DNA of 64,000 nt from Candidatus Palauibacter sp. (lineage in GTDB: Bacteria > Gemmatimonadota > Gemmatimonadetes > Palauibacterales > Palauibacteraceae). The stretch lies in NCBI RefSeq assembly GCF_965222475.1, contig NZ_CBDCUB010000006.1, forward strand, positions 129,893 to 193,892, read 5' to 3'. Positions 23,701 through 60,903 of the stretch are shown piece by piece; position 1 is the first letter of the stretch, and each line of letters begins with the position of its first letter. The notes below the pieces were generated by a model. That model saw only the letters and a list, made by a program, of their open reading frames with translations, made no database searches and was not told the origin of the DNA. The position numbers and the translations under genes were made by a program.

Positions 23701-24483
23701 CCGCAGCGCCCGCTCCCCTTCGAGGCGCATCCGGTAGTGCGCGTCGTACGGAGGCGCCACCACGAGTTCGTCCCCCACCCGCTCCGCGAGCCCCCGCAGA
23801 CTCCGCTCCTCGGGGCTGAACAGGTCGTCCCCCTGGATCGTCTTGTAGTTGGCGAAGTAGGCGTCGAGGTCCTCGTCTCCGTCGACATCGGCCAGCGCCA
23901 CCGTGCTGCTCCCCCAGGCGCCCCCGAACCCCGCGTCACCTTCCTCGAAGACCCCGCTCCCGTCGTTCAGAAGGAGCGCGTTCGTCCCCCCGTGGACGGC
24001 CACCATCAGGTCCAGGTCTCCGTCTCCGTCCGCATCGGCCAGGACGGCGCCGCGCGACAGCCGATCCGCGAGCGCCGTCCCGGAGCGTCCGGTCACGTCC
24101 TCGAATCGCCACCCGCCGAGGTTGCGGTAGAGGACGTTCGGGCGGTCGAGCATGCAGAGGTATAGATCGACCCACCCGTCCCCGTCGACGTCGCCGAGCG
24201 CGACCCCGACCCCGTGGATGAGCGTCCGGTTCGCGAGCCTCGCCTCCCGGGAGACGGAGGGCGTCGCCGTGATCCCGGTCCGGTCCGCCGAGAGCCGCGT
24301 GAAGCCGCCGCCGGGCTCACCCTCGAACCGGAGCGCACGCTCGCGGGCGCCGTCCCCCTCGATCCAGTCGATCGAGACGGGCGGAGGAGAGTTCTCGCAG
24401 GCGCCGAAGAAGACGACCCCGATGGTCGGGGAGAGAAGGGCACGGAGGCCGGAGGGTCTCGCGGCCACGTCAGCAGTATCCAT
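20758..24483 (-). CDS. Large FG-GAP/VCBS repeat lipoprotein with two ASPIC/UnbV-like segments; 5' end abuts or is interrupted by IS110
   Basis: FFGAC lipobox-like signal; many DxDGDGxxD repeats; AIGARV...WPSG twice; start either GTG 24468 or IS-derived ATG 24483. Confidence 0.88.
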   Translation of the reverse strand: MDTADVAARPSGLRALLSPTIGVVFFGACENSPPPVSIDWIEGDGARERALRFEGEPGGGFTRLSADRTGITATPSVSREARLANRTLIHGVGVALGDVDGDGWVDLYLCMLDRPNVLYRNLGGWRFEDVTGRSGTALADRLSRGAVLADADGDGDLDLMVAVHGGTNALLLNDGSGVFEEGDAGFGGAWGSSTVALADVDGDEDLDAYFANYKTIQGDDLFSPEERSLRGLAERVGDELVVAPPYDAHYRMRLEGERALRFELADPDEFYLNDGSGRFEPVDLGGGAFRSADGEAVTEVPREWGLAARFFDADDDGDADLFVANDLGSRDGFWLNEGGIFVAASGLAFRTESTSSMGVDFSDIDGDGDTDFVTTEMLARDPVRRREQVSLGVAGWTPPGEHAARMSADRNTLHLNRGDGTWAETARAAGLDASEWTWGAMFLDVDLDGYEDLLITNGHGWDPLDGDTQEALRTGRIQVDWREELGVFPPLRLRNLAFRNRGDGTFGEMGRTWGYGVEPDVSHGIAAADFDRDGDRDVVITRLDEPPLVLRNDAGGVRVALRVRGEGGNTQAIGARVVLAAGGALPAQTRQVTSGGLYLSGSDPGLTFAMGERAAAEATIVWPSGRRRTLRVSANRAYEVAPPGDAAGGEPGMRRPAGAGGGPALFAGPEAVGRHGESAFDELARQPLVPLELSRSGPGVAWADIDADGDPDLLVGAGAGGRAQLAINEAGRLVDPVPFGAPAVGDHTSILALPTAARPVILAGVSSWEARSPADLDAIPPLARLDAGPPPAVPPSTHATGPLAAADVDGDGDLDLFVGARATPGAYPLPADSRLLLADGDAWTVDATAAATLRGIGLVSGAVFSDVDGDGDPDLALALEWGPVRLLENDGGRFTDVTDAWGPGAHTGRWNGIATGDFDGDGRSDLVVTAWGDNTGLGATADRPVGVVASDLDGNGLVDLIEVETGQDGVARPVRDYLTLGRALPFLRRAAPTFEAFARASVDDLLGSGRTGLYRPSAATLRHTVFLNRPGEPGNGGGFEARPLPARAQVAPAFGVAVADFDRDGHEDLFLAQNYLATPRGLPRHDAGRGVVLLGDGRGGFRALEVDESGVTVYGDARAAALADFDADGRWDLAVGQNGAETLIFRGRGGPPGLRVRLSAGGGSPGAIGARLRPRYRDGAEGPAREIQAGSGYWSLNGPVQVFGRAADIRAVTVRWADGTEEVFEVETGALEVKLRRGEGS

Positions 24484-24591
24484 GTTGCAAGGTTGCCGCG
24501 CGAGACGCGTCCACGGGCGAGTGTTGGCGCGGGGCTCGCCGGTCTCGGGCACGGAGGGCGTGCGGGCCGGCGCGCGGGGTTCGGGAGGGCA

Positions 24592-25545
24592 TCAGTTGGC
24601 GGCTCGGGGTTCCGGGGTCCGGAGACGGTCCTGCTGGAGGAGCGCGTTGGCGAGGACGACGAGCTTCCGCATAACGGCCGTGAGGGCGACCTTGGGCGGC
24701 TTGCCGGCGTCGAGCAGCGCCGCGTACTTCCGCTTGAGATCGGGATTCCAGCGGATCGCCGACAGGGCGGGCATGTAGAGGGTCCGGCGAACCGTGTGCC
24801 CGCCTCCCTGGATGAAGCTGCGTCCCCTCCAGGCGCCGGACTCCCGCGTCACCGGCGCCAGGCCGGCCAGGCTGGCGGCCCGGGGGCCGGTGAGCGTGCC
24901 CAGTTCGGGCATGTGGACGATCAGCCCCGCGGCGGTGACGCTCGAGATGCCGGGGATGGAGGTGAGTATCCGGGATCGCCGCCTCAGGGTCTCCTCGCTT
25001 TGAAGCAGCCGCTGGATCTCGTCGTCGACGCTCTTCAGCTGGCGCTCGATCTGCGCCAGCCGCTCCTTGTTGATCCGCTTCGCCAAGGCGTGGCGCAAGT
25101 GCTTGCCGCGGTTGAGGGGGGCGGTTCGATCCGCGACCAGCGCGTCGCGTACCGACTGCAGCTCGGCGAGGTCGCGCTGGCTCCGGGATTTCGCCGGGGT
25201 CGGGCGCAGGTCGTCGATCGCGGCCGCCATGACGGCCAGCGTCCGAGCGTCCACGGCGTCGATCTTCGCGCGCCGTCCCTGCGACCTGGCGAAGCACCTG
25301 ACCTGGTACGGATTGATCGCGTAGAGCGGAAGTCCGGCCTTCAGCAGCACCTCCTCGAAGTCGCGGTGCCAAGGCCCGGTGGGCTCGTAGGCGACGCGCC
25401 CGACCCCGGGGCCGACCCAGGCGATCAGTTTCCGGAACCCGGCCGCGTCGTTCGAGAAGCTGGCCGTCCTGCTCCCGGTGGGGGCGTGTTCGTGGGCGTC
25501 GAGCCGGGCTTTCGAGATGTCGACCCCGACGGTATGGTTGGTCAT
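24592..25545 (-). CDS. IS110 DEDD recombinase/transposase
   Basis: VGVDISK, YEPTG, KIDAVDA (D-E-D-D), SIPGIS, GLAPVTRESG (catalytic Ser), ALTAVMRKL. Confidence 0.96.
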   Translation of the reverse strand: MTNHTVGVDISKARLDAHEHAPTGSRTASFSNDAAGFRKLIAWVGPGVGRVAYEPTGPWHRDFEEVLLKAGLPLYAINPYQVRCFARSQGRRAKIDAVDARTLAVMAAAIDDLRPTPAKSRSQRDLAELQSVRDALVADRTAPLNRGKHLRHALAKRINKERLAQIERQLKSVDDEIQRLLQSEETLRRRSRILTSIPGISSVTAAGLIVHMPELGTLTGPRAASLAGLAPVTRESGAWRGRSFIQGGGHTVRRTLYMPALSAIRWNPDLKRKYAALLDAGKPPKVALTAVMRKLVVLANALLQQDRLRTPEPRAAN

Positions 25546-25554
25546 CTTCCCTTC

Positions 25555-25732
25555 TCCCGTGCTTGTCATGCGAGCCTCGATGCTCGTGTATCCATTCGGG
25601 ACGTGGGGAAGGACGGTGGCGGCCAAACTGCTAGACGGCCCCTGACGGCCAAGCCCGCAACGGTCCGACCACCGCCCCCCTTCGTCGCCCCCTCGGGGGG
25701 CGCGAAGGGCCGGGTCTTCCCTGTGCCCCGGA
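25555..25732 (-). ncRNA. Predicted IS110 bridge RNA (5' hairpin, target-binding loop, donor-binding loop)
   Basis: Donor guides ATGGATAC (25595-25588) and GACAAG (25567-25562) match the element ends; target guides GTTGCGGGCT (25661-25652) and TAGCAG (25633-25628) match the flanks. Confidence 0.85.
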
Positions 25733-25789
25733 CCTTCAAACTAACAGACAAGCCCGTGGCGGAGAGTCCGCCACCGGCCGCGGGGCTCG

Positions 25790-26473
25790 CTATTCGCTGT
25801 CTCCGCGGAAGACGGACCGCAACGCCTCGACCGCGTCGGCGGCCGCCTCCGCCGCCCGCGTGAACACCTCGGCAAGTTCCCGCTTGCCGGTGCCGGCGAG
25901 CGGAATGTCGAAGGTGAAGTGGACCGCGACCCCGGCGGGGCGGACGCTTTCCCGTGGATCGCTCCACCCGCCCCCGGGATCGAGGGCACCTTCGATGTGG
26001 ACCTCGACCGTGTCGCAGACCGCGCCCACGTCCTGCGCGACCCGGGTGAGCCGTGAGGCGAGCGCGTCATTCCTGGAGGCGTTCGACTCCCGCTCGTCGA
26101 GCCACAGGGACGGCGGCGCGACGTCGATGTGGACGCACCCGAGCATCACCTCGGCGGCGAGTTCCAGCGGGTCGCCGCCGGGCACGTCCGAGGACGGCTG
26201 CGCCAGGTAGGTGGCCAGGCCCTTGGTCCCGATGTTGACGAGCCCGAGGGCCATCTCGTCGACCGTCAGCTCCACCATGGCCGAGGGCGCGTGCAGCGTG
26301 TCGAGCGCGCCGGACTCGAGGATGTCGAGTTCCGACTGGTCGTACGCGAGCACCCGGAAGAACCACGAGAGCGGTTCCTGCCGGCCCTCGAAGAGGTCGC
26401 GCACGCCGAGCCCCCGGTCGCGCAGCGCGCTCAGGAGGAGCCCGCCCAGTTGGTGTCGCGTGAGTTCGGCCAC
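25790..26473 (-). CDS. Hypothetical protein
   Basis: 227 aa with coding-like composition and operonic position; no family recognised. Confidence 0.75.
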   Translation of the reverse strand: MAELTRHQLGGLLLSALRDRGLGVRDLFEGRQEPLSWFFRVLAYDQSELDILESGALDTLHAPSAMVELTVDEMALGLVNIGTKGLATYLAQPSSDVPGGDPLELAAEVMLGCVHIDVAPPSLWLDERESNASRNDALASRLTRVAQDVGAVCDTVEVHIEGALDPGGGWSDPRESVRPAGVAVHFTFDIPLAGTGKRELAEVFTRAAEAAADAVEALRSVFRGDSE

Positions 26474-43492: not shown

Positions 43493-43514
43493 CCCGCCGG
43501 CTCGGGCTCCGTAA

Positions 43515-43571
43515 CGGCCCGTGGCAAGAGCCCCGCTGCATTCGAGCGACGCAGGGTTTTGCCACGGGCCG
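43515..43571. repeat. Palindromic intergenic element (REP/MITE-like or terminator)
   Basis: CGGCCCGTGGCAA ... TTGCCACGGGCCG perfect 13-bp inverted repeat between convergent genes. Confidence 0.75.
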
Positions 43572-43578
43572 CTGAGGG

Positions 43579-60376: not shown

Positions 60377-60903
60377 GCGACTCCTATGCCAGCGGCGGAC
60401 GATGTGGGGAAGTTCAAGCGTCAGAACCTAATATAAGCGCCTCGATCAACGGGTAGGGCCCGAAGTTCTCAACACCGGCTTGCCACGGGCGGCATCACCC
60501 GCCCTTCGCCGGAACCTCCAGTGGCCGTAGACTGGCGGCCACGAAGGCTGTCGAGCTTTCGAATCGTGGACGGCCGGCTTCCGCACGGGCGACCAGTACG
60601 TGCGGGACGCGAAGGGCTGGGTCCAGGCGGAGCGGTGCGGCCTCGAGATCGACATCGGTGACTTGTGCAATTGAATGGCACGGCTGGAGGGGTTCGAAGG
60701 CGTCGTGCGGCGGGAGGGGGCAGCGTGAGCGGGATGAAGCGGGACCACTTGCATGCACGCGACGACGAAAGGCTCGGGAGCGTGGTATTGCTGCCCCGTT
60801 CTGCCGGCCGCAAGGTAGTGTGATCCATTCTGCACCTCCGAGAACCTCTCCCAGAACCTAGTGCTTTCCCGGTCGTGAAGAGGGACGTAATGAGGGGATC
60901 AGC

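Follow-up and report, generated by a model that had tools for sequence, protein, structure and literature searches.

The window, by which we mean the whole 64,000-nt stretch of Candidatus Palauibacter sp. DNA that was analysed, carries an intact insertion sequence (IS) on its minus strand at positions 24475-25750 (1276 bp, including the CT of the right end). Its transposase/recombinase gene (24592-25545, minus strand; 317 aa plus a stop codon), recognised through Pfam and full-length relatives, encodes a protein with DEDD_Tnp_IS110 (PF01548; 1.9e-22) and Transposase_20 (PF02371; 4.7e-18) domains, which matches those relatives over its full length at 75-82%. The ends of the element were fixed by alignment with two diverged copies from the same genome (G000) and then with relatives from 50 related loci in public genomes; recognisable ends were present at 45 of 53 loci, and the other eight (L032, L048-L053 and, on contig C1, the truncated copy of G000 itself), in which no left end could be recognised, were left out. 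Alignment of 44 related copies places the left end at TGTCTG, starting from 25750, and lets the right end close with ..ATGGATACT at 24475, while in all 45 parsed copies the left end reads CT followed by TGTC[TC].. and the right end finishes in ..ATGGATACT, with CT standing at both junctions. The two ends (TGTCTG.. and ..GGATACT) share no inverted repeats, as the layout of the IS110 group demands, and the non-coding regions measure 205 nt at the left end (5' of the transposase gene) and 117 nt at the right end; a long non-coding region upstream rather than downstream of the gene is a criterion for this group in passages of PMC11187229. Domains, layout and CT core all fit, and 24475-25750 belongs to the IS110 group of the IS110 family. 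By tblastn, three IS110 transposase genes are present in G000, and the subtype described here occurs in one copy. Additionally, a -35-like hexamer (TTGCAA, 24485-24490, minus strand) was predicted at the right end and a -10-like hexamer (TAGTTT, 25743-25738, minus strand) in the left end; joining of the ends, as in a circularised element, would place them 17 nt apart and thereby create a candidate promoter across the junction. Relatives in Bryobacterales carry TTGACA and TAATCT at equal spacing.

The element is bordered on its left by a hairpin (25751-25781, minus strand), whose 3' arm constitutes the left target with the CT core at 25752-25751, and on its right by the right target GCTGAC, directly followed by the GTG start of an FG-GAP/ASPIC lipoprotein gene (24466-24474, minus strand). 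Read on the minus strand, 25781-25751 forms a stem-loop with 12-nt arms (92% complementarity) and a 3-nt loop, with a predicted single-stranded DNA fold of -16.6 kcal/mol (z = -2.97) that was equalled in stability by one of 200 shuffled sequences. The hairpin begins 8 nt past the stop codon of one gene, and the insertion point precedes by 6 nt the putative start of the next, which is GTG here and TTG in G013, a genome of the same genus. G013, in which the downstream gene is 95% identical over 575 nt, possesses both flanking genes without the IS, and its empty site consists of the hairpin, a single CT and then GCTGAC, with two base differences in this stretch, one of which is in the 5' arm. The proposal in the first-pass annotation that removal of the IS rebuilds a hairpin with the CT core in its 3' arm was thus borne out, both by the fold and by a natural empty site with one CT. 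The hairpin segment is a lineage-specific addition between the two genes, present in G000 and G013 only; in six more distant genomes of the same genus (approximately 81% identity) it is absent and the two genes abut. A search with the IS left end across 114 genomes of the family gave no match in G013 at E <= 1e-10, and since the empty site is intact there, the insertion appears to be recent.

As a consequence of the insertion, the lipoprotein gene (1240 aa) is severed from its upstream region by the IS. The right end of the IS offers an in-frame ATG located 15 nt upstream of the putative GTG start (window 24466-24490). On the other side of the hairpin, a 227-aa open reading frame (ORF; 25790-26473, minus strand) was found without a Pfam match, and at each of the eight same-genus loci that were inspected it is conserved beside the FG-GAP gene. 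At the orthologous locus of more distant relatives, a sequence resembling the repeat arm described below (..CCCGCGGCAAA.CCCGC..) was dismissed as evidence, as it falls within the part of the downstream gene that encodes the signal peptide.

An alignment of 21 distinct left ends was assembled, and a consensus structure computed by RNAalifold on 11 of them contains two stem-enclosed internal loops and 52 pairs, seven of which show compensatory changes; an Rfam scan of the IS returned no relevant family. In the first, target-binding loop, the 5' side carries the left target guide UUGCGGGCU (25652-25660, minus strand) and the 3' side the right target guide CUAGCAG (25628-25634, minus strand), which is complementary to CT plus GCTAG. 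The other loop carries the left donor guide AAUGGAUAC (25588-25596, minus strand), of the same sense as the IS right end ..ATGGATAC(T), and a right donor guide region with GACAAG (25560-25570, minus strand), complementary to CT plus TGTC of the IS left end. The left donor guide is conserved in 21 of 21 distinct left ends (one of these, n = 5, has C in place of one G), and the donor loop as a whole (AAUGGAUAC and GACAAG, matching the element's own ends) is invariant across relatives. The sides of the target loop, on the other hand, covary with the flanks: the 45 insertions comprise 23 distinct guide/target pairs with 11 distinct guides, and agreement at non-core positions averages 8.96 of 12 for cognate pairs versus 4.73 of 12 when guides are set against the targets of other guides (n = 230). 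Examples of such agreement are the predicted TCACGGG-CT-GCTAA for flanks reading [CA]CACGGG-CT-GCTA[GA] (class A), TTTCAGG-CT-CAT.. for.TTCAGG-CT-CAT..,.GGGTCG-CT-CCCGT for GGGGTCG-CT-CCCGT, and ATCGTCG-CT-CTCAG for identical flanks in L078. Agreement is perfect (14/14) in L015 and L078 and only 6/14 in L013/L014. These counts are to be read in the light of their sampling, as many of the related IS copies were drawn from the same few genomes, nine class-C insertions share identical flanks, probably through duplication of one larger unit that contains them, and are hence non-independent, and three of eight extra same-genus loci could be parsed, of which L078 alone was used, L077 being left out because it was mis-registered by one base and L082 because its right flank had been taken from inside the element. 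Taken together, the fold and the covariation of guides with flanks indicate that the left-end non-coding region encodes a predicted two-loop bridge RNA.

The class-A relatives are inserted at the arm of a repeat (11 + 8 + 1 insertions in three genomes), and their guides spell that arm; in these genomes, two MAGs labelled Bryobacterales and one labelled Thermoanaerobaculia, the arm used reads CACGGGCT^GCTAR. The guides of the Palauibacter copy predict TTGCGGG-CT-GCTAG, while the site used is CCACGGG-CT-GCTGA, which amounts to 9/14 matches (7/12 non-core) with 9 nt contiguous across the core and places this copy among the weaker pairs. Its right guide fits the family consensus ..CT-GCTAG perfectly. 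The three distal mismatches in the left target may be read as U:G, U:G and G:T wobbles; for IS621, part of PMC11208160 mentions that an rG:dT pair can be tolerated, and the left guide of ISPpu10 is described as permissive away from the core in part of bioRxiv 10.64898/2026.03.19.712850. The 9-nt core match CGGGCTGCT occurs at 164 further sites in the genome, mostly in genes and only 14 of them preceded by CCA, and something beyond the core match must therefore have chosen this site. Base pairing alone would thus not account for site choice, and the hairpin with its 5' arm is, by analogy with related systems, an obvious candidate factor.

The extent to which the hairpin arm recurs was assessed by motif counts against Markov expectations of orders 1, 3 and 5 for the 4.6-Mb genome (69% G+C). 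The genome-wide enrichment that had been anticipated for the arm motif depends on motif length: the 9-mer GCCACGGGC is at expectation (179 observed, 156-212 expected), whereas the 11-mer TTGCCACGGGC (14 observed, 2-3 expected) and the 12-mer GCCACGGGCTGC (16 observed, about 3 expected) are enriched. Iterated nhmmer searches (E < 0.01) defined two module types, X and Y, each starting GCAG[CT]CCGTGGC.., and 16 + 14 significant modules yielded 30 arms in G000, with E-values down to 2.7e-14 for 45-nt modules. Twelve of the 14 copies of the 11-mer are situated in family arms, the two outside (one being at 60480) equalling the chance expectation, and approximately six of the 16 12-mer sites are outside recognised family copies. 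Full elements of the family are approximately 170 bp in length, with shorter forms of 59 and 98 bp in G000. None of 23 elements lies deep inside a gene-like ORF (a stop-to-stop ORF with GC3 >= 0.85, which is a rough heuristic rather than a gene call), and the four elements that overlap gene-like ORFs are all within 41-176 nt of an upstream stop. An Rfam scan of 11 repeat loci gave nothing relevant, its lone match (sX15, E = 0.88) being taken as chance.

Two further sites in the window had been regarded as copies of the arm, and their fates differ. The site at 43559-43575, described as a second copy within a 13-bp inverted repeat, is indeed the right arm of a 59-bp MITE-like family member (43514-43572) with significant matches to the genome's repeat family (nhmmer, E = 8.7e-9 and 1.3e-4), arms that pair perfectly over 13 bp or over 18 nt at 89%, a predicted single-stranded DNA fold of -22.9 kcal/mol (z = -3.74), and CC at the core position in both arms. 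The 11-14 nt arm match at 60480-60493 (plus strand), by contrast, is at chance level, matches neither family profile and contains no family module by nhmmer, and its motif pairs with a downstream partner while family arms pair upstream; it was consequently discarded as a copy. The contention that both sites differ from the target exactly at the core T holds for the core itself (CC and CG, respectively), but they also differ upstream (TTG versus CCG), and 60480 downstream too.

Beyond this genome, the 13-mer CACGGGCTGCTAR is present in 32, 35 and 32 copies in G001, G002 and G003 (0, 2 and 0 copies in the reversed control), the former two being MAGs labelled Bryobacterales and the latter a MAG labelled Thermoanaerobaculia. 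In these three genomes the copies often form convergent pairs separated by approximately 240-285 bp, which represent small elements whose ends are inverted, and the approximately 170-bp elements of G000 align with the approximately 245-bp elements of G003 over the first ~55 and last ~95 columns. Across genomes, family elements measure 59-270 bp, possess terminal inverted repeats and frequently have TA/CTAG beside them; five of the 21 CT arms in G000 are followed by TA, and in G001-G003 TA(G/A) is built into the 13-mer pattern. At locus L065 of G002, a pair of arms 2.8 kb apart encloses a 1.47-kb element that has the same arms over approximately 22 nt and encodes a 485-aa transposase with DUF772 and DDE_Tnp_1 domains. 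G002 holds at least nine near-full-length copies of this transposase (>=477/485 aa, 99-100% identical), seven of which have a perfect 13-mer at one end. Homologues were found in G003 (three, at 59%) and in G000 (one, truncated, 58%, residues 26-424), the end of the latter, ..CCACGGCCTGCTAG, being related but not identical to the arms. Because the arms equal the terminal inverted repeats of an intact DDE transposon in G002, the family is read as MITE-like, its members being putative miniature derivatives of an IS5-like transposon, where the name 'IS5-like' is based on Pfam domains only. An otherwise unannotated repeat family would thereby be explained.

Several minor observations concern these loci. 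The truncated homologue in G000 is cut at its 5' side by the apparent 3' end of an IS3-type gene (rve integrase; C1:771800-772100), and L065 (G002:C1:3762600-3765700) additionally contains an IS630-type element (DDE_3, 369 aa) at CTAG beside the IS5-like end, followed by a partial MITE. The 10-mer TGTCTATTAC, which constitutes the first 10 nt of the left end in Bryobacterales relatives such as L010, is found exactly twice in the 4.6-Mb G000, at C7:325144 and C8:581510, both outside the window; both copies are fused to a repeat arm directly after ..GGGCT, replacing its last two bases, and one more shared base follows, beyond which the sequences are unrelated. These 11-nt pieces look like relics of earlier IS110 insertions. 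The junction at C8:581498 (..GGGCT followed by TGTCTATTACC) was considered as a fourth IS110 copy and rejected, as tblastn finds only three transposase genes and the downstream ORF is prepilin-like, which leaves an 11-nt relic.

The first-pass annotation had further suggested that core variants of the repeat are immune or escaped sites. Among the 30 arms of G000 the core is CT in 21, CC in five, CG in two and something else in two; 16 of the 30, each of them with CT, fit the guide of the IS no worse than the occupied site does, and yet every one of these is empty. Non-CT variants of the 13-mer number 0, 2, 3 and 1 in G001, G002, G003 and G000, versus 32, 35, 32 and 3 CT versions, and in the genomes rich in class-A insertions (11 in G001 and eight in G002) they are rarer, not commoner. 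Immunity or escape as an evolutionary reading is not supported by these observations. Poor use of non-CT cores is expected from the IS621 experiments as related in part of PMC11208160, and non-CT cores are simply minority variants, predicted to be poor substrates by mechanism and without an escape signature.

The explanation that we consider highly probable is that an intact IS110-group IS employs its bridge RNA to aim at the tip of the terminal inverted repeat of an IS5-like transposon/MITE family. The donor-binding loop would read the element's own joined ends (..ATGGATA-CT-TGTC..), while in the target-binding loop the left guide UUGCGGGCU would pair with the bottom strand and the right guide CUAGCAG with the top strand, so that jointly they would specify approximately ..CGGG-CT-GCTAG. 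In the IS5-like transposon and its miniature derivatives, the target thus specified would comprise the tip of each terminal inverted repeat together with the adjacent TA(G). For the present copy, recombination would have taken place at the CT in a short hairpin between two genes; the 3' arm of this hairpin and the repeat arm are identical over 12-13 nt. By analogy with work on IS621 and ISPpu10, recombination would proceed through a circular intermediate and require the CT core, and the hairpin located 5' of the left target would assist insertion. The claim that the IS parasitises a REP/MITE-like family is accordingly retained in its MITE/transposon-end part, given 30 arms in this genome and 20 insertions of relatives, and abandoned in its classical REP part, as no RAYT was found in this genome (92% complete).

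The occupied hairpin allows of a different reading, namely that it is an ordinary terminator-like intergenic hairpin with a 9-nt guide core, that its likeness to the repeat arm is coincidental or convergent, and that the IS is a general seeker of hairpins or short motifs. The position of the hairpin only 8 nt past a stop codon would suit a terminator, and its likeness to the family is one of arm identity only: no internal family modules were found in it, neither profile (nhmmer, X and Y) matches it, and it lacks the usual TTTTG/TTTCG lead-in. Furthermore, about six copies of the 12-mer exist outside the family, the 16 family arms with a CT core that suit the guide as well or better are all unoccupied, and the segment is confined to G000 and G013, being absent from the six more distant same-genus genomes. 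A search for short arm-arm hairpins, permitting two substitutions per arm, was uninformative (46 matches versus 94 in the reversed control). Coincidence must, however, accommodate an occupied arm that is identical in 13 of 13 positions (CGCCACGGGCTGC) to the family arms at C1:814378 and C8:694156 and that has a mirrored 5' arm, when CCA precedes so few (14/164) of the other CGGGCTGCT sites. It must also be set against sister elements that sit in bona fide family arms (20 insertions in three genomes), and against two family arms of G000 in which the same CT is followed by what appears to be an 11-nt relic of an IS110 left end. We regard this reading as a serious one, though on balance improbable, and lean only slightly towards viewing the occupied hairpin as a decayed family member rather than a mimic.

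It could alternatively be argued that the repeats are classical REP/BIME sequences maintained by a RAYT (Y1 transposase), and that the IS is a strictly REP-targeting IS110. The repeats are palindromic, their absence from deep positions within gene-like ORFs (0/23 by the rough GC3 test) is in keeping with extragenic elements, and REP-targeting precedents are known in IS621, ISPpu9, ISPpu10 and ISPa11. Yet Y1_Tnp/RAYT (PF01797) was found neither in G000 (92% complete) nor in G003, both of which hold the repeats, while G001 and G002 have one each and the controls were positive in six of 14 genomes; moreover, the elements span 59-270 bp with terminal inverted repeats and often TA/CTAG flanks, and their arms are the ends of a DDE-transposase IS. 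This renders the REP/BIME interpretation very unlikely. That all motif matches are due to chance in a genome of 69% G+C, with no repeat family at all, would agree with the 9-mer count and with the chance-level site at 60480, but is scarcely credible in view of nhmmer E-values as low as that of the best 45-nt modules, inter-genome homology over approximately 170 bp, and 32-35 copies of the 13-mer versus 0-2 in controls.

A bolder proposition is that this IS110 clade is a dedicated parasite of one IS5-like transposon/MITE lineage across distant phyla, with its guide tuned to the repeat end plus TA(G); we consider this doubtful. An autonomous IS5-like partner is documented in G002, and in G000 only the truncated 58% homologue exists. 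Were the proposition true, each insertion would interrupt the repeat 2 bp short of the tip, which should render that end non-functional, and the two 11-nt relics would be scars of earlier attacks, preserving a left-target/right-donor junction without the element, produced by recombination or deletion.

Comparison with characterised systems points to an ordinary IS110 mechanism acting on a new target family in new hosts. With IS621 of E. coli and ISPpu10/ISPpu9 of Pseudomonas putida, as described in parts of PMC11208160, bioRxiv 10.64898/2026.03.19.712850 and PMC12288879, the element has in common the DEDD and Transposase_20 domains, an upstream non-coding RNA with two loops, a CT core, the guide polarity, and as target a dispersed extragenic palindrome, where the 3' arm of a stem-loop contains the left target. 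For IS621, passages of PMC11208160 report that the left guides pair with the bottom strand and the right guides with the top strand, the core being included in both, and that CT is preferred; for ISPpu10, which targets a REP, a stem-loop 5' of the left target gates insertion according to part of bioRxiv 10.64898/2026.03.19.712850. Unlike in these systems, the target here is the tip of an IS5-like/MITE terminal inverted repeat and not a RAYT-type REP, the guide and donor sequences are different, and the hosts are MAGs labelled Longimicrobiales, Gemmatimonadota, Bryobacterales and Thermoanaerobaculia. IS4321/IS5075, reported to target the inverted repeats of the Tn21 family (cited in PMC11187229), are likewise elements with a DEDD transposase that insert at one set place within a terminal inverted repeat belonging to a different transposon; the present element differs from them in having an IS110-type upstream non-coding region, no inverted repeats and a different host transposon family. 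ISPa11, which targets REP, and ISKpn4/ISPst6, which target attC, are IS1111-group elements (PMC11187229, in part) that also take a set position in potentially folded repeated DNA, and they differ from the present IS in sub-family layout and target classes. The premise that some IS110 members target REPs or transposon ends is thus sound, with printed precedents, and it is the transposon-end option that applies here.

An IS110-group element aimed at IS5-like/MITE ends in these phyla was not found in the literature by a search that was not designed for this question, and the published natural-target sets (Supplementary Data 2 of PMC11208160; target logos of PMC11187229) may already include this clade. 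While the current picture of IS110 biology is unchanged, the data provide an example from nature, spread over several genomes, of how bridge RNAs direct insertion in phyla that have received little study, in which at least five guide classes are mounted on one conserved RNA scaffold, with two 14/14 pairs and dozens of insertions. Furthermore, an imperfect site was accepted while better-matching sites are empty, and its left target occupies the 3' arm of a hairpin, a placement also described for ISPpu10; this makes the locus a case for weighing DNA structure against base pairing in the site choice of IS110 elements.

The second IS110 subtype of G000 (77-78% aa identity; C8:282547-283787 and C1:798231-799346, one left end being truncated) is located outside the window. 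Unoccupied copies of its right flank CACTTCCCGTTGGACAAGACT are present at C1:799382 and C1:804502, where ..GTTCAGGCT precedes them, and the same flank is also used by 9-10 copies in one Longimicrobiales MAG. This subtype, too, thus targets a repeated sequence, which is possibly the end of another mobile element.
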